Of a DNA stretch of 14,169 nucleotides, positions 358-13,952 are shown one piece after another. Location: NCBI GenBank assembly GCA_965263355.1, contig CBDHHL010000009.1:1-14169 (forward strand), given 5' to 3'. Numbering within the stretch: position 1 is the stretch's first letter; the number at the start of each line of letters is the position of its first letter. The DNA is from Leptolyngbyaceae cyanobacterium (lineage in GTDB: Bacteria; Cyanobacteriota; Cyanobacteriia; Phormidesmidales; Phormidesmidaceae). Position numbers and translations under genes: made by a program. The notes below the pieces were generated by a model. The model searched no databases. It had not been told where the DNA came from and worked only from the letters and a program-made list of their open reading frames with translations.

Positions 358-741
358 CTATCCTCCCAGTAACTCAACAGCCAACAAACCCAGTCCCATA
401 AGACAACCCCAAGACAGCATTACCCGAATCGCATCACCTCGCCATAGTTCCAACTTGCTAGGCACCCGCGTATCATTCCAAGTCCATGGCCGTTTGTTGA
501 GCCGGATTAGTCTACTTTCTGCCTCATGGATTGCATCTTTGTGCATAGTGCAGTACGCAATCCTACACCAGGGTAGCCGCTTCGCCTGGGGATATCGGTG
601 GTGGTCCTCCCATCGGCTTCGTAGGTTCACTGACTTGCCAACGTACCAAGTAATAAACAGCCAACGCACGGCGTAGAGCCCAGGCTTACTGGGGAGCCTG
701 TCACGCTTTGTCAGTGGTATTGATGGCCAAAATAAAATCAT
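358..741 (-). CDS. GIY-YIG nuclease domain protein with C-terminal transmembrane tail
   Basis: LPSKPGLY...WYVGKSVNLRSRWEDHHR...EAESRLI...WN carries the GIY-YIG Tyr, Arg, Glu and Asn positions; hydrophobic C-terminus VMLSWGCLMGLGLLAVELLGG. Confidence 0.8.
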   Translation of the reverse strand: MILFWPSIPLTKRDRLPSKPGLYAVRWLFITWYVGKSVNLRSRWEDHHRYPQAKRLPWCRIAYCTMHKDAIHEAESRLIRLNKRPWTWNDTRVPSKLELWRGDAIRVMLSWGCLMGLGLLAVELLGG

Positions 742-778: not shown

Positions 779-2197
779 TCATGACACTGGCCTCCACTTA
801 TTGTTCACCCAAGCAATGCGCTCTGAAAGATAATCTTTATCGCCAGGATGTTGAACCCCTTTGTAATTGTCGTACACCTGCGTGAACACTTCGTCACTCC
901 AGATCACAGCATGGCCATCCACGTCGATACTGTATCCAGGCGCAATGCCAACCAACGTGGGTTCAAGTGACTTAACAGCTTTCCCATCATTAGACAACCG
1001 GCTAGCGACAATGTTAGGGGCGATGGTGTATATCGCCTGCTTTCGTTTAGTCCCGGCACTAGACAGTGTAGTGATTTTGTCGGCCAGCTTAGTGACCAAT
1101 GGCTTCATCTGTTCAGCGTATTGATTAGTTGTAGATGCTGTATAGATAAACTCATCCACAATCAATAAGCTGTGAGGGCTTTTCATAGCCTCGTCGATTA
1201 GCTCTAGTGAATCTTCAATGGCGTCTTCAGCCGTATATGCATCACAGACAGACAAGTCAGCAATTACCTTTTTGGCATGGCTCCATATATCCAATGAATC
1301 TGCCTCGGCATGACAAAGATTTATATAAAAAGTCTTTGTTTTAAGATCGGATGCCGCTAACTCCGCAGAGCAAACAGCAGCTAGCCATGTTTTTCCAGAT
1401 CGTTGAGCGCCATAAAAAGCTCTAGAAACGTACGGCCTAGCAATGATCAATTCTTGAGCTGAAGCGCGCCTGCTGGATGCTTTCGTTGCAGCGACTGGTT
1501 CTAGTGGTTCTAGCCATGGGTCTTCTTCAAATTGATCAGCATTAGGTGTGGATACAGGCTCTGCCTTGGCAGGAATTGTCCTGACTGACTTAGGCATCTT
1601 CTTTGGACGACGTTTGGGGATAGCGGGTGCTGCGTCGGGAATCGCTGAGGCAGCAATCTCTAACAAGTCCGTTCCAGCTGCCTCAGACATTAACTCTGGG
1701 TAATTCAGCCATCTCCCAGCTACGCCAATCAAGGTGTCAACCATGTTGATAGTGATGTGGTTGAACTCTTGAGGTCCTACCTGTTCAGCCAATGCTGTCA
1801 ACATATGGCCCTGATAATTTGTCAGGTAAAATCGAGCCTTATCTTCTTGGCTTAGATAATGGTGAGCTTGGACCCCTAGCTCTGGATATCCCGTTGAAAT
1901 GCCAGCATGACTATTAGCAGATCTCAAAGCATCCCAGTTATTCCAGGGCAACGGCATGAAACGCTTTGTCCTAGACGATTCGCACACCATGCAGGCGGCA
2001 TAAGTGACAGCGCCCACAGCCAAAGGAACAGCAGCCGCAGCAGACCCTAGCAACCCAGCCGCACCCACAGCTATGGTTGTTAATCCGCTTGCTTTTCCCA
2101 GTTGGGCTAACTGCCTCGTCTGGGATGCTTTATTCCTGAGGCTTCTGGCCTGAATGATGAACCTGTTTCGATACGACATAGCTAATTTTCTAGACAA
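779..2197 (-). CDS. Membrane-anchored P-loop ATPase, divergent FtsK/HerA/TraB/coupling-protein-like
   Basis: N-terminal hydrophobic hairpin (aa ~38-72), Pro/Lys-rich linker, Walker A GAQRSGKT, Walker B LLIVDE. Start is TTG 2197 (GAGG upstream) or ATG 2179. Confidence 0.75.
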   Translation of the reverse strand: MSRKLAMSYRNRFIIQARSLRNKASQTRQLAQLGKASGLTTIAVGAAGLLGSAAAAVPLAVGAVTYAACMVCESSRTKRFMPLPWNNWDALRSANSHAGISTGYPELGVQAHHYLSQEDKARFYLTNYQGHMLTALAEQVGPQEFNHITINMVDTLIGVAGRWLNYPELMSEAAGTDLLEIAASAIPDAAPAIPKRRPKKMPKSVRTIPAKAEPVSTPNADQFEEDPWLEPLEPVAATKASSRRASAQELIIARPYVSRAFYGAQRSGKTWLAAVCSAELAASDLKTKTFYINLCHAEADSLDIWSHAKKVIADLSVCDAYTAEDAIEDSLELIDEAMKSPHSLLIVDEFIYTASTTNQYAEQMKPLVTKLADKITTLSSAGTKRKQAIYTIAPNIVASRLSNDGKAVKSLEPTLVGIAPGYSIDVDGHAVIWSDEVFTQVYDNYKGVQHPGDKDYLSERIAWVNNKWRPVS

Positions 2198-3002
2198 TCA
2201 TTTGTTCCTCAACCTCGTCCCCGGTGAAGCGATCAAACAACTCAAACCCAAACACAGTTAGCAACGCATAAATCGTATTAACAATGAAGCTGCCCGCACC
2301 TGAGAAAGAGCCCAAAAAAGCACCGAATTCAACGATGTACAGCAAGCAGATGCCAGCATAACCAACGCCTACTTCACCCATCCCTTGCCGGTTATGCTCC
2401 TCTGCTCGGATAGCTGCTAGAGCAATCGCTCTAGGGTCAGCCTCAACCTTCTTCATGGAATTAGCTTTTTCGAACTGAGCTTTGGTGATCTCCGCTGATT
2501 TTTTTCTTATGAAAACAGCCTCAAACCGCTGGATCATAATGGCAGTACTAGCCGCAAGAACAAATAAAGCGGGGTTGCTCCAAACTGTCCAGAACTCAGA
2601 TTTTGCCCTTTCTCTTATAAAATCAGGCATCCACTCCCAGTCTTTTGTGACTTCGTTAACCAGCAGATTATGAAGATTAGCGATGGGCAGTAACCGCCTA
2701 ATATCGGCTCCATCATTCACTGCAAACTTAGGGACAAACCGTCGTGTCCGCCTAACGGCTTCAACGACTTCTTTGTATTCAGCCTTGGTCGTGAATTCAG
2801 AGCGCTGAGGGTGATTGACAGGCACAGCTACCATGACACTTTCAATAGACAAAAGAGCACAGTAGGTAGTCGCCACATGCGCTACCAGGCCAAACCCTGG
2901 CACGCTAGATAAATAGCGGTAGCTACGAGTGGCGGCTCTAAAAGGAGCTGCCCCAACGGCTACCCAAATGTTGTCATCTTTAATTGGTCTGGATGCTGTC
3001 AT
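2190..3002 (-). CDS. Multi-pass membrane protein
   Basis: Probable start ATG 3002 (MTASRPIK) rather than TTG 3074; hydrophobic segments FGLVAHVATTYCALLSI, ALFVLAASTAIMI, VGYAGICLLYIVEFGAFL, FIVNTIYALLTVFGF; overlaps both neighbours. Confidence 0.8.
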   Translation of the reverse strand: MTASRPIKDDNIWVAVGAAPFRAATRSYRYLSSVPGFGLVAHVATTYCALLSIESVMVAVPVNHPQRSEFTTKAEYKEVVEAVRRTRRFVPKFAVNDGADIRRLLPIANLHNLLVNEVTKDWEWMPDFIRERAKSEFWTVWSNPALFVLAASTAIMIQRFEAVFIRKKSAEITKAQFEKANSMKKVEADPRAIALAAIRAEEHNRQGMGEVGVGYAGICLLYIVEFGAFLGSFSGAGSFIVNTIYALLTVFGFELFDRFTGDEVEEQMIV

Positions 3003-3357
3003 TTTCGTTACTACAAACAGGATGGAACTGGAAGTACCCGTCAGGGTGAATATTGAGCGGGTGCAGCGTGCCAATGATTAGCCGATTTTGGTCAAAAACC
3101 TTGACGTAGTCATCTACCATTGACTGCCCTTGAATATCAAACCTCGGAGGAGTTAAGTCGCTGCACACATACCCATCAATGACCAAAGCATTGTACTGAG
3201 CTTGGTTGTTATCGGCATAGGTTTGAGAGATCGAACCTTGAGCATTAATACCTTTAATAGCTCGCTCTGTTTTTCGCTCTCGCTCAGCCAGCCAACGCTG
3301 GTGGCTCCTGTCGGCAGACCACTGAGACTGAAGACTGCCAAACCCAGCTAACGCCAT
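2980..3357 (-). CDS. Single-TM protein, probably expressed as a -1 frameshift extension of 3384..3761
   Basis: Frame is open from 3603 with no ATG/GTG/TTG until 3357; that ATG lies inside the hydrophobic segment IGGIVAWGGLLGLSCIAGGFMALAGFG. Confidence 0.65.
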   Translation of the reverse strand: MALAGFGSLQSQWSADRSHQRWLAERERKTERAIKGINAQGSISQTYADNNQAQYNALVIDGYVCSDLTPPRFDIQGQSMVDDYVKVFDQNRLIIGTLHPLNIHPDGYFQFHPVCSNENDSIQTN

Positions 3358-3383
3358 GAAGCCACCAGCGATACAGCTAAGCC

Positions 3384-3761
3384 CTAATAATCCACCCCAG
3401 GCAACAATGCCGCCGATGGGGAGAGGCTTTGGGGCAAGGTTGGCACCGTGATACTCGGAGCAGACGGCAGCATCGCCTTTACTTCCTCCATGTTCACGAT
3501 CTCCAGCTTTGGGCGCTGAATCGCTCCGCCTAAGTCCAATTTGCTTAGCAACTTTCGTTCCAAGTCGTGCGCGAAAAAATCTTGCACCTGAGGAGCTAGC
3601 GTCTCAGCAATTAAATCATTCTGTGCTGCTGCGTCCTGCAATGTGGTCGAAATATTTTGAAGCTGTGCATTAGCAACGCCTTGGGCGACTAATGCTGTGC
3701 TGGTCTCTGATTGCTGAGTCTCGTCAGCATACTGAGCATTGTCAAAAACTGAATTATCCAT
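3384..3761 (-). CDS. Hypothetical protein, Q/A-rich helical N-terminal half
   Basis: ATG 2 nt after the upstream stop; contains in-phase heptamers T_TTT_TTC (3579-3573) and C_CCA_AAG (3513-3507). Confidence 0.75.
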   Translation of the reverse strand: MDNSVFDNAQYADETQQSETSTALVAQGVANAQLQNISTTLQDAAAQNDLIAETLAPQVQDFFAHDLERKLLSKLDLGGAIQRPKLEIVNMEEVKAMLPSAPSITVPTLPQSLSPSAALLPGVDY

Positions 3762-3763
3762 AG

Positions 3764-3994
3764 CTAAGAACCTTGTTGTTTACATGCAGCAAGGGCTTCT
3801 CTTTTGGACAAGCCCTTGCGAGTGTACGAACCGAATAACGCGATCGCCTCAACCTCATCAACCGTGTAAAACCGCTTCCTAATATTCAAAAAAACACGCC
3901 AGTTGTAAAACGCTGTCCTTGAAATTTCAGCGCCCACCAATTCGGTGGCGAGTTCATGGGCTTGCGTCACATTCAAGAGAGTGTCAATGGACAT
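3764..3994 (-). CDS. Small Xis/MerR-like winged-HTH DNA-binding protein
   Basis: LNVTQAHEL...ISRTAFYNWR...RFYTVDEVEAI resembles the MerR/excisionase HTH plus RxY wing; first gene of the operon. Confidence 0.65.
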   Translation of the reverse strand: MSIDTLLNVTQAHELATELVGAEISRTAFYNWRVFLNIRKRFYTVDEVEAIALFGSYTRKGLSKREALAACKQQGS

Positions 3995-4203: not shown

Positions 4204-4461
4204 GTGCCCACCCAGAAGTCACGAATATCTTTCATTGCAGACGAAAAACTGAAGTCGGAGCTAGAGGCATGGGCCGACGAAGATTTTCGAAGCCTTTCTA
4301 ATTTGGCGGAAGCTATAGTCAGGGAAGCGGTTGCCAAAAGGCAATCGCAGTCTAAGCGAAAGGCTATGGCTGAAGCACTGAAAGTGATAAAGGAAAAAGC
4401 TGGCGATGACGTCGAGATAGTCCAGGCGATCGCAGCCATAGAGAAAGGGCTCACCGACTAA
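4204..4461 (+). CDS. Ribbon-helix-helix (CopG/Arc-like) transcriptional regulator
   Basis: RISFIADEKLKSELEAWADEDFRSLSNLAEAIVREAV is a beta-strand/helix/RS.SN/helix RHH pattern. Confidence 0.85.
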   Translation: MPTQKSRISFIADEKLKSELEAWADEDFRSLSNLAEAIVREAVAKRQSQSKRKAMAEALKVIKEKAGDDVEIVQAIAAIEKGLTD

Positions 4462-6010: not shown

Positions 6011-6277
6011 ATGCTCATGGTCATGAAAGTCCGTCGCACTCAAGAATGGGATATCCCCGATTTGCATACAAAGCTGCAAAAAGCCGCTGGGGAGTCAAGT
6101 AAGTCGATAACTCAAATATGTAAAGAGGCCGAGTTATCGACAGCATTCTGGTACGAGTTGGCGAAGGGTAGAAAAAATTCGATTAGTTTTGAGAGTTTAG
6201 AAAGGTTGTGCACAGCCTTAGGTTTAACCATTAAGGAGCTTGGCGTTTCTGATGATGAGGGTGCTAAAGATGATTAA
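6011..6277 (+). CDS. Cro/Xre-family HTH regulator
   Basis: KSITQICKEAELSTAFWYELAKGRKNSISFESLERLCTALG is an Xre HTH pattern; start is one of ATG 6011/6017/6023, downstream of the promoter. Confidence 0.85.
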   Translation: MLMVMKVRRTQEWDIPDLHTKLQKAAGESSKSITQICKEAELSTAFWYELAKGRKNSISFESLERLCTALGLTIKELGVSDDEGAKDD

Positions 6278-6887
6278 CCCAGCTGATATCCAAATTGATG
6301 AGCTGCCGTCGGTGGAGTTAGTCGACCGAGGTAGCCTCCCAGAGACACCGAGTATTTACTTTGCTGTAGATGAGCAGGGCGTTATTCAATACATAGGTAG
6401 ATCTGTTAACCCGCGACAGCGATGGAATAGACATCATCGACAACATCAGTTCGACGACATAGGTGGCGTCAAAATCGCTTACATCGACTGTCCTGAAGCC
6501 TTGCTTAACGAGGTTGAGGATGCGTTGATTGATTGGTTTAGCCCAGTTCTTAATAGGACTCAAACCTTTTCTCCCAAGCTGCACCAATCCATCGTTCCAC
6601 TGCAGCATAAACAGAGCCCTAAAAATTCGATCCAGTGGAAATTACGTCAAGTTATGGCTGATCGCCAAATGACAAATCGAGCGCTTGCTGAGCTTGTGGG
6701 GATGCACGAAACCTCAATCAGCAACATGAAGCGTCGTGATGACATGCCACGAATCGATGGGGTTTTATTGAATGGGTTGTGTGTTGCACTGAAATGCACT
6801 CCTTATGACTTAATTTTTTATTCAGCGGATGACGAGGGCGCTATCCGTGGGGGGAAGAAAGGCCCCGAACAAAAGGAGGGCTTATGA
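6270..6887 (+). CDS. GIY-YIG nuclease fused to a C-terminal Cro/C1-type HTH
   Basis: PSIYF...QYIGRSVNPRQRWNRHHR...EVEDALIDWFSPVLN, then IQWKLRQVMADRQMTNRALAELVGMHETSISNMK...LCVALKCTPYDLI; start ATG 6270 after GAGGG. Confidence 0.85.
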   Translation: MINPADIQIDELPSVELVDRGSLPETPSIYFAVDEQGVIQYIGRSVNPRQRWNRHHRQHQFDDIGGVKIAYIDCPEALLNEVEDALIDWFSPVLNRTQTFSPKLHQSIVPLQHKQSPKNSIQWKLRQVMADRQMTNRALAELVGMHETSISNMKRRDDMPRIDGVLLNGLCVALKCTPYDLIFYSADDEGAIRGGKKGPEQKEGL

Positions 6888-7636
6888 ACTTCTCTCAGAA
6901 TTTAGCCATGGTCATGGTGCAGTCTGCCGATCAGTTCCCAGTAGACTTTGACAACGCTTGGAAGTGGATCGGATGGACTAGGAAGTCTAAGGCTAAAAAG
7001 ACGTTGACCAACAACTTTGTTGAGGGTGTAGACTTTTGCGCCAGAGGGTGCAAAAGTTCAACTGGTGGGCGTTCCAGTGAGCTTATCCTTTTGACTGTTG
7101 ATTGTTTCAAGTCATTAGGGATGATGGCAGGCACCGAAAAAGGCAAAGAAATCCGCCAGTACTTTTTGAAGTGCGAAAAGCAGGTTAAAGAGATTATCCC
7201 GGCCCAAAATGCTGAGCTAGAGAAGCTGCGTTTAGAGGTAGCTTTATCGCAATCTCGTGAACGACTCGCAGCTGCCACTCAAGCATTGGAGGGTATCTGC
7301 CCTGGGCTCTCAGCACTGGCCTTTGGTAAGCCTGAGGCAATCATTGAAAAAGAACGCCCAACCACAGTAGTCCAAGACGCATATGGGAGATCTGTTACAT
7401 ATGATGGAGCAACCATAACAGAGCTGAGCAAGCGTTATGGGTTTGGGAATGGCACTAAGGCCCGCAACCAATGCCGGGAATGGATTAGGTCCATGGGGAT
7501 TGACGACGGGCAATGGGTTGAAGAACCTGCCGCAAGAATCACCTATAAGCTCCCTAAGGCGATGCTGCCTGTCTTGGACCAGTGCTTCAGTCAGGGTAGA
7601 GGACAGCGCCAAAAATTGTTAGGGGAGACCAACTAA
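6884..7636 (+). CDS. Phage antirepressor-like protein (AntA/AntB-type N-terminal domain, coiled coil)
   Basis: FPVDFDNAWKWIG...NNFVEGVDF...GGRSSELILLTVDCFKSLGMMAGTEKGKEIRQYFLKCEK; AGGAGG RBS; ATGA overlap. Confidence 0.8.
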   Translation: MNFSQNLAMVMVQSADQFPVDFDNAWKWIGWTRKSKAKKTLTNNFVEGVDFCARGCKSSTGGRSSELILLTVDCFKSLGMMAGTEKGKEIRQYFLKCEKQVKEIIPAQNAELEKLRLEVALSQSRERLAAATQALEGICPGLSALAFGKPEAIIEKERPTTVVQDAYGRSVTYDGATITELSKRYGFGNGTKARNQCREWIRSMGIDDGQWVEEPAARITYKLPKAMLPVLDQCFSQGRGQRQKLLGETN

Positions 7637-13846: not shown

Positions 13847-13952
13847 TGCCTCATGCAGGATTCGAACCTACGACTTCCTGGCGAACGATTAAGGCAATCT
13901 CCTCAACTGAGTTATTGCGCACCAGTTACTCTACCAACTGAGTTAATGAGGC
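13847..13952 (-). tRNA. tRNA-like RNA with a 40-nt expanded anticodon loop (isotype undetermined; Thr/Phe-like acceptor)
   Basis: Acceptor GCCTCAT/ATGAGGC+A73, T8A9, D arm ACTC-AGTTGGTA-GAGT, stem CTGG/CCAG, variable AAGTC, T arm GTAGG-TTCGAAT-CCTGC; no encoded CCA. Confidence 0.8.

Follow-up and report, generated by a model that had tools for sequence, protein, structure and literature searches.

We analysed a 14,169-nt stretch of DNA from a Leptolyngbyaceae cyanobacterium (contig CBDHHL010000009.1), hereafter referred to as the window, and focused on its minus strand, where a 76-aa putative helix-turn-helix (HTH) gene (3764..3994) is followed by ORF1 (3384..3761), ORF2 (annotated at 3357-2980), ORF3 (2190..2996) and a gene for a P-loop ATPase-like protein (779..2197). 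The putative HTH gene, assigned from by-eye resemblance and a weak plasmid-protein match, stops 2 nt ahead of the ORF1 ATG. ORF1 has a zero-frame product of 125 aa, for which the structure model (pLDDT 58) predicts a long helix (residues 4-74) and then a disordered tail. ORF2 as annotated is also 125 aa long and starts at an ATG (3355..3357) with GGTG(G) 4-5 nt upstream; its frame is open over 207 codons (2980..3603, minus strand) and encodes a linker, a membrane helix (about 3423-3345), a coiled helix and a small beta domain with two invariant Cys. ORF3 encodes a 268-aa membrane protein, and its start, which has no Shine-Dalgarno (SD) motif, overlaps the last 17 nt of ORF2. The P-loop protein combines an N-terminal hydrophobic segment with a P-loop ATPase-like C-terminal domain; its profile matches were all below the Pfam cut-off (ATPase_2 in the window, DUF87 and FtsK_SpoIIIE in relatives), and it had no sequence match in the PDB.

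A ribbon-helix-helix (RHH) regulator is encoded divergently (4204..4461, plus strand; RHH_5, above cut-off). The genes of the window encode RHH and HTH regulators, an antirepressor, two GIY-YIG-like proteins, FGE-sulfatase, PNK3P and cpYpsA, and an odd tRNA is also present. This gene content and the tRNA suggest a phage- or plasmid-like element, and proteins identical or nearly identical to those of the window were found on contigs of 42-81 kb. ORF1 belonged to no known family; neither ORF1 nor ORF2 had a Pfam or PHROG match or a usable match in the ESM Atlas, and ORF3 and the ATPase had no PHROG match. Rfam returned nothing at the locus, where a promoter and terminator scan gave only chance-level signals.

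Overlapping frames and sequence integrity

The original prediction placed ORF2 in the -1 frame of ORF1, with 82 open codons above ATG 3357 that contain no ATG, GTG or TTG, and put this ATG inside a transmembrane helix. Our analysis bore this out: the frame relation was confirmed, TGA 3606-3604 marks the upstream limit of the open stretch, and the best 19-residue hydropathy value is 1.77 (from 3423), compared with 0.56 for the annotated 125-aa ORF2 and 0.71 for ORF1. Because the hydropathy peak starts at 3423, upstream of the ATG, the annotated start lies within the helix. The open stretch holds near-cognate codons only (ACG 3558, ATT 3540, ATC 3417, ATT 3408 and ATC 3372). The two slippery heptamers proposed for the overlap, T_TTT_TTC (3573..3579, minus strand) and C_CCA_AAG (3507..3513, minus strand), are likewise in place and in phase, as is the weak hairpin described after the former, and a shift at either would give a product of 260 aa.

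We next asked how unusual this arrangement is. The -1 frame stayed open over the last 72 ORF1 codons in 1.2% of 20000 random synonymous recodings, and over the sub-stretches of codons 85-100 and 101-125 alone in 18% and 44%, respectively. Eight in-phase XXX_YYY heptamers occur in the 2854 codons of 16 window genes, and only at T_TTT_TTC (197 codons) and C_CCA_AAG (175 codons) does a shift lead into a long -1 frame, compared with at most 40 codons at the remaining six.

Sequence integrity was examined at the contig level, and none of three sequencing runs carried an indel (at most two samples of one study, possibly the window's own source, with the third run missing 3530-3545). Among cluster members on the 42-81 kb contigs, ORF1 was 125 aa in 5/5 and ORF2 was 125 aa in 3/3. 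ORF2 is under purifying selection, with four of the five SNPs in its frame being silent; the sole SNP between the ORF1 stop and ATG 3357 is silent in that frame. A continuous ORF1-ORF2 protein was absent from 227 candidates of 113-363 aa.

Candidate shift site and stimulators

The original prediction proposed that a programmed -1 frameshift yields isoforms of 125 and 260 aa. We found this to be the best explanation of the locus, with the shift assigned to C_CCA_AAG and not to T_TTT_TTC; judged from sequence anatomy, a programmed -1 frameshift at 3513-3507 is likely. From C_CCA_AAG, which spells Pro84-Lys85 of ORF1, 175 codons of the -1 frame are open and reach a conserved coding region with no canonical start. 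In the 14 kb window, the motif CCCAAAG has only two copies; both lie here, 80 nt apart, and they precede the two strongest hairpins among 10 XXXAAAG sites. The site falls in the part of ORF1 predicted to be disordered, just past the helix.

SD-like motifs were judged against the anti-SD core. One of them, GGAG (3524..3527, minus strand), is a candidate 5' stimulator that lies 10 nt upstream of C_CCA_AAG in the window and is compatible with the protein sequences of relatives. PMC5009743 lists C_CCA_AAG among the highly shift-prone heptamers in E. coli and gives 9-14 nt upstream as the distance at which SD elements stimulate -1 shifting, a range that includes the spacing of GGAG. On the 3' side, a stem-loop (3445..3500, minus strand) begins 6 nt past the heptamer, with a 14-bp core pairing 3500-3486 with 3460-3445 (-25.5 kcal/mol over 72 nt, z -2.67, 1/200 shuffles). 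Its pair probabilities are 0.87-1.0 in a wider sequence context; among 74 nearby windows, however, its z comes only 6th. A pseudoknot, in which the loop would pair over ~13 nt with 3415-3403, was rejected by hand inspection, as L98F/A117V and A96E in relatives would break the pairing.

We then compared ORF1 with its relatives at 98, 64, 60 and 45% identity, the last three being P0022, P0023 and P0024, and read nucleotide conservation at the heptamer and stem back from protein residues. Pro84-Lys85 is invariant in 4/4 lineages (100-45% identity) directly after six variable residues, within a region where 8/36 positions (residues 73-108) are invariant, and the preceding residue can end in C in all four lineages (compatible codons, as read from proteins only). 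In P0022 and P0023, I88V with V106A and N90D with I104T each force an A-U to G-C exchange in the stem, and P107L leaves a G-U pair. Broken lower-stem pairs numbered 0/17 in P0022 and in P0023 and 3/17 in P0024. Re-dealing the same number of substitutions (20000 trials) gave joint p values of 0.0025 (P0022), 0.0022 (P0023) and 0.08 (P0024); these values are post hoc, and the P0022 and P0023 changes count as one shared event. Among 150 back-translation shuffles, hairpins as good as the native one arose in 10 for the window, 4 for P0022, 30 for P0023 and 127 for P0024. P0024, the most distant of these relatives, thus lends the stem poor support. Slid-register controls also favoured the stem and were not counted, because the structure was taken from the window itself and the controls are thus biased.

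The same relatives bear on the start of ORF2. An NTG codon in the -1 frame requires a zero-frame codon that begins with TG (Cys, Trp or TGA). Cys and Trp are absent from the overlap in P0022, P0023 and P0024 (3/3), so these lineages cannot encode a canonical ORF2 start there, with the possible exception of an NTG concealed by a TGA stop of ORF1 at the extreme end of the overlap. The gene calls of the ORF2 relatives P0002 and P0003, paired with P0022 and P0023 on the basis of carrier contigs of equal size, also begin within the helix; an ORF2 partner of P0024 was not found. P0022 and P0023 terminate at the same point as ORF1, and most of the substitutions in their tails affect second codon positions and are silent in the ORF2 frame; for P0022, silent changes made up 6/9 from residue 101 on versus 10/36 in residues 11-100 (p 0.05). 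These observations indicate that the arrangement is old and maintained. Since the changes in the 3' arm of the stem are also silent in the ORF2 frame, stem compensation and ORF2-silent changes are not independent signals. Searches of genome, viral and metagenome contigs, of phages and, with ORF3, of plasmids returned no DNA of close relatives spanning the site, and the ORF1 profile A2 matched 0/172 genomes. One genome-contig match (L001) was dropped, as only 34 hydrophobic residues matched.

The second CCCAAAG (3427..3433, minus strand) is in phase with the ORF2 frame, has GGTG 10 nt upstream, and is followed directly by a hairpin (3393..3424, minus strand; -16.9 kcal/mol, z -1.37, not beyond chance). 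Its wobble bases are fixed by Leu109-Ser112 of ORF1, residues that do not vary in 4/4 lineages; the GGTG is not kept in relatives. Like the GGAG and the 14-bp stem, this copy did not feature in the original prediction. A further -1 slip at this copy would, by computation, reach a stop 16 codons on. Shifted ribosomes could thus meet a second C_CCA_AAG in their new frame and three isoforms of 125, 260 and about 128 aa would result, a cascade that we consider doubtful; if it exists, the membrane form would be made at a rate given by the product of two probabilities, which would gate the ORF3 and ATPase genes. The second copy may instead be a mere by-product of dual coding of the family's Lys-Pro motif.

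Distant relatives and rival explanations

A search with ORF2 against 1.84 billion representatives gave 8 matches, six of which are proteins of 135-142 aa that start at a Met a few residues ahead of a Lys-Pro-like motif and a hydrophobic helix. Another match, P0017, is a 1457-aa repeat protein, which was left out of the comparison together with the weak match H3 (E 0.04). Six genome loci with ORF2 were found in 5/172 genomes of the order of genome G001, in addition to one named plasmid, and ORF3 and ATPase relatives lie downstream of ORF2 in all six. Loci with ORF3 occurred in 11/172 genomes of this set and in 1/90 and 0/57 genomes of two other orders, and the ORF2 profile matched 1/401 genomes in a phylum sample. 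In the alignment of the family, the two Cys are invariant in 15/15 rows and all full-length distant members carry an N-terminal hydrophobic helix; members begin 3-14 residues before the Lys-Pro motif. In the window, this N-terminal motif and helix are encoded in the tail of ORF1, above the annotated ATG. The ORF2 structure model (pLDDT 65, pTM 0.38) predicts a helix at 15-83 followed by a small beta domain; Foldseek gave no match to this model at E 0.001, and the VIA fold rows for the whole model contained generic coiled coils with Z under 7.

The distant relatives for which DNA was available had their own ATG in 7/7 cases, most with a clear SD, and in one (L085) the ORF2 relative overlaps its upstream gene by 83 nt, yet still has its own ATG. 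Independent starts in homologs had been named as evidence against the original prediction. That evidence was found in these seven relatives, where the upstream genes differ from ORF1, and the combination of an own ATG with other upstream genes implies that the ORF1-ORF2 fusion is clade-specific rather than absent. The 7/7 count also suggests that ORF2 was ancestrally a stand-alone anchored protein.

We also found a syntenic sister clade in which the end of the ORF1-like gene carries T_TTT_TTG, in phase and invariant in 4/4 copies (L108, L109, L110 and L112, from 3 genomes). Past this heptamer, a basic stretch and then a conserved membrane helix are encoded in the -1 frame; in L112 a -1 stop lies upstream of the T-run and none after it, and 3/5 changes from the T-run to a GTG that could serve as a start are silent in the -1 frame. 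No strong hairpin follows T_TTT_TTG. An hhalign comparison of these genes with ORF1 gave weak homology (E 0.027, probability 1.8%), and for this reason, together with the missing hairpin and the chance that GTG is the real start, we treat the clade as a lead only. Speculatively, this family of small helical proteins might repeatedly use -1 shifting to add a membrane anchor, which, like the cascade, we consider doubtful. Two further loci (L104 and L105) resemble the window by position, with a divergent small gene followed by HTH-like, ORF1-sized, ORF2-like, ORF3 and ATPase genes; their ORF2-like gene has its own ATG.

Several alternatives to a shift at C_CCA_AAG were weighed. Translation of ORF2 might begin exclusively at ATG 3357 and give 125 aa that lack a membrane helix, with the coding capacity for the upstream helix being a relic. 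The GGTG(G) motif (-4.7 kcal/mol), the conservation of this Met in 4/4 close relatives and the choice of gene callers, which picked ATG 3357 or a Met 8 codons up, all favour such a start; however, the product would lack the hydrophobic segment with which every full-length distant member begins, most ORF1-tail changes and the SNP above the ATG are silent in the ORF2 frame, and the stem would be left unexplained, so we regard it as unlikely. A minor independent start at ATG 3357, driven by the same motif, may nevertheless operate beside frameshifting. ATG 3473, which has the strongest SD, was rejected as a source of ORF2, being in the ORF1 frame, buried in the stem and missing in P0024. Somewhat less likely again is an independent start at a near-cognate codon within ORF1 (ATC 3417, ATT 3408 or AAG 3429): such codons are present in the overlap, family members begin close to the Lys-Pro motif and L085 offers a precedent for overlap, albeit with its own ATG. 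Against it, ATC and ATT come after the Lys-Pro motif and within a hairpin, no good SD is seen, and the heptamer, the stem and its compensation would have no explanation.

Other alternatives retain the two frames and differ in how they are joined, or attribute the split to damage. T_TTT_TTC is very improbable as the main shift site. It is in phase, it lies 8 codons into a -1 frame that then remains open (about 14% by chance for codons 63-84), Phe62 is invariant, Asp/Asn-Phe-Leu could still spell T_TTT_TTA/G, and the sister clade has T_TTT_TTG. Yet its hairpin is weak (z -0.70), with 1, 1 and 2 of its 6 pairs broken in the three relatives, its SD-like motif is only 5 nt away and thus outside the 9-14 nt range, and a shift there would cut the predicted long helix of ORF1; U-rich heptamers are, moreover, weaker than A_AAA_AAG in E. 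coli, according to PMC5009743. Still less credible is a bypass in which the ribosome takes off at CCA AAG (3512-3507), skips the hairpin and resumes at a second CCA AAG, identical to the first and 80 nt further on; the product would have about 233 aa. An 8-nt direct repeat with this spacing flanks the stem, and both copies are conserved at the amino-acid level. In T4 gene 60, however, bypass is triggered by a stop codon after the take-off site, and no such stop follows here; two-copy 8-nt repeats often arise by chance (7 families in 501 nt), and the -1 frame is open between the copies, which bypass does not need. Lowest in our ranking, and largely refuted, is an assembly error or recent indel that split one gene or severed ORF2 from its start. 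Lengthening the C4 run after TTG 3437 by a single C would indeed create a family-like start, and distant ORF2 genes start nearby. Against this stand the concordant sequencing runs, the purifying selection on ORF2, the lack of a continuous protein, and the ORF1 end point and tail, which are the same in lineages at 60-64% identity.

Proposed mechanism and known recoding systems

Taken together, we propose that ORF1 and ORF2 form one gene recoded at C_CCA_AAG. Ribosomes translating ORF1 would stall at the stem-loop 6 nt beyond 3513-3507, while the SD-like GGAG 10 nt upstream would put tension on the ribosome, and a fraction would slip back by one base. Unshifted ribosomes would yield the 125-aa soluble helical protein. 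The 260-aa product of shifted ribosomes would keep the ORF1 helix (85 aa) on the cytoplasmic side, joined by a flexible linker to a single membrane helix and, beyond it, an outer domain with the two Cys. The slip, its rate and the membrane topology are inferred from sequence anatomy and protein-level conservation. Because the SD-less start of ORF3 overlaps the end of ORF2, the shift may also throttle the downstream membrane genes. A comparison of the ATPase with FtsK/HerA-type DNA translocases gave P-loop, DUF87 and FtsK matches that were all sub-cut-off; together with a ParM/StbA neighbour on one plasmid, they suggest plasmid DNA transfer or partition. We therefore tentatively picture ORF2, ORF3 and the ATPase as a plasmid-type membrane complex for one of these processes, in which the shift could tether a share of ORF1 and limit the expression of the membrane genes.

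To our knowledge, apart from IS elements and phage structural genes, bacteria offer few well-supported cases of -1 frameshifting (dnaX, copA and csoS2). The heptamer of both copA and csoS2 is C_CCA_AAG. We compared the ORF1-ORF2 signal with known systems; this comparison also drew on PMC3711429 and PMC10861913. By its sequence, the candidate signal has the heptamer, open frame, stem and SD of an IS911/dnaX-type -1 frameshift: IS911 and other IS3-family elements and E. coli dnaX likewise use an X_XXA_AAG heptamer, an SD-like element 9-14 nt upstream and a 3' stem-loop, and in IS elements the shift also joins two overlapping ORFs into a fusion (PMC5009743). Unlike in those systems, no transposase or polymerase domain is present here, the heptamer is C_CCA_AAG, and the added part would be a membrane anchor with an outer domain. 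An OrfA/OrfAB transposase was rejected, as neither Pfam nor PHROG gave a catalytic domain in ORF1 or ORF2 and ORF2 is predicted to be a membrane-anchored helix with a small beta domain. Phage tail chaperones of the lambda G/GT type also pair a short zero-frame protein with a longer -1 fusion, at G_GGA_AAG-type sites (PMC5009743); this identity was rejected as well, with no tail genes adjacent, no PHROG match and a product predicted to be membrane-anchored.

The closest parallel in outcome is E. coli copA/CopA(Z), where one gene also gives a soluble and a membrane product through a -1 shift (PMC6771820, PMC9548414). Its polarity is opposite: in copA the zero frame encodes the membrane protein and the shift truncates it, whereas here the shift would add the anchor. 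The copA signal uses a pseudoknot (PMC6182138), which is not supported here, and the proteins are unrelated. In alpha-carboxysomes, csoS2 also undergoes a -1 shift, about 50% efficient and with a 3' stem-loop, that sets an isoform ratio in a complex (PMC5009743, 10.1101/2023.07.07.548173); it differs in being a chromosomal carbon-fixation gene with a truncating shift and no SD stimulator. A truncating shift of the copA/csoS2 kind was rejected for ORF1, since the -1 frame continues for 175 codons and only the second CCCAAAG would truncate. In the mobile element ICEMlSymR7A, FseA (msi172-msi171) is likewise encoded by two ORFs joined by a frameshift, which limits transfer, and single-ORF and two-ORF variants coexist (PMC4755241); the possible rationing of downstream genes by the shift proposed here is reminiscent of it. 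FseA is, however, an alphaproteobacterial transcription activator made by a +1 shift at UUUC (PMC4755241), and recoding of this type was set aside given the -1 frame relation and the predicted membrane anchor.

The open-access literature searched contained no account of this module, nor of a frameshift of this kind in a cyanobacterial plasmid or phage. If the proposed shift is real, it would add a -1 frameshift in a cyanobacterial mobile element that reverses the copA logic, with a compact signal. It would also correct the annotation, as the 125-aa ORF2 call is without its helix in every close relative. Because distant relatives keep ORF2 stand-alone, the locus would also offer a datable case of a gene that lost its start codon and was captured by its neighbour's frameshift. 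The findings further draw attention to an unstudied plasmid module of cyanobacteria that combines regulator, membrane and ATPase genes. The same ORF2-ORF3-ATPase order is found on the named plasmid (pMIC7113.06, WP_015186328-326), where the ATPase relative sits beside ParM/StbA, and at L084-L089 and L104-L107. There, ORF2 has its own ATG, upstream genes that mostly differ (ParM/StbA in the case of the plasmid) and no C_CCA_AAG fusion, and in the nearer set ORF3 is 44-48% identical to that of the window.

Heptamers and overlapping frames in related loci

In the sister clade that shares the window's layout, an in-phase T_TTT_TTG lies at the end of the ORF1-like gene and is invariant in four loci (L108, L109, L110, and L112); at locus L097 it occupies positions 399-405, with the -1 frame at 288-605. 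Past this heptamer, the -1 frame of the same four syntenic loci is a conserved ORF with a membrane helix. The heptamer and this ORF are a candidate second frameshift system. The window's putative HTH gene (3764-3994, minus strand) also carries an in-phase T_TTT_TTG, at codon 35, after which the -1 frame is shut within 2 codons.

At locus L095 (reverse strand 314-1273; the same as L104), the ORF2-like frame contains no stop over 319 codons; roughly 70 of these overlap the ORF1-like gene and lie in its -1 frame. The stretch above its ATG resembles helical protein, and no canonical heptamer was found in the overlap of the two frames. At L085 (genes at 1185-1583 and 1501-1887), a distant ORF2 relative has its own ATG and Shine-Dalgarno (SD) sequence despite an 83-nt overlap with its upstream gene.

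Motifs, a possible internal start and RNA folding around the candidate shift site

Aligned protein sequences of the ORF1 relatives revealed P-K-P-L-E-V at the shift site (window 3512-3495, minus strand), which resembles K-P-L-E-Y, the N-terminal motif of the distant ORF2 relatives, as well as the window's own P-K-P-L-P-I 80 nt further on (3432-3415, minus strand). Both heptamers may have originated in an old tandem duplication. In the loop region of the stem, all three relatives (P0022, P0023, and P0024) carry Phe-Pro-Lys at the residues aligned to ORF1 98-100, where the window has Leu-Pro-Ser; at the DNA level, Phe-Pro-Lys could be another C_CCA_AAG.

Among the SD sequences scanned, the strongest was GGAGG ahead of ATG 3473 in ORF1's frame (window 3489-3471, minus strand), which is predicted to be hidden within the 5' arm of the frameshift stem. 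Several 72-nt windows at about 3639-3854 (minus strand), spanning ORF1's start and the 3' half of the HTH gene, outfold this stem (z -2.8 to -3.6), and translational control by this folded stretch is possible.

Other genes of the window

A stand-alone GIY-YIG-like gene (358-741, minus strand) is the last of the operon, while a GIY-YIG and HTH_26 fusion (6240-6887) and an AntA-like antirepressor (6884-7636) are encoded on the opposite, plus strand. A tRNA-like gene at 13847-13952 (minus strand; Rfam, 50.4 bits) was not called by ARAGORN, and its anticodon loop measures 39 nt versus 6 in the Rfam model. An 11-nt segment of the D-arm recurs in the insert of this loop, so the gene may be a degenerate tRNA or may carry a partial duplication or an unusual intron.
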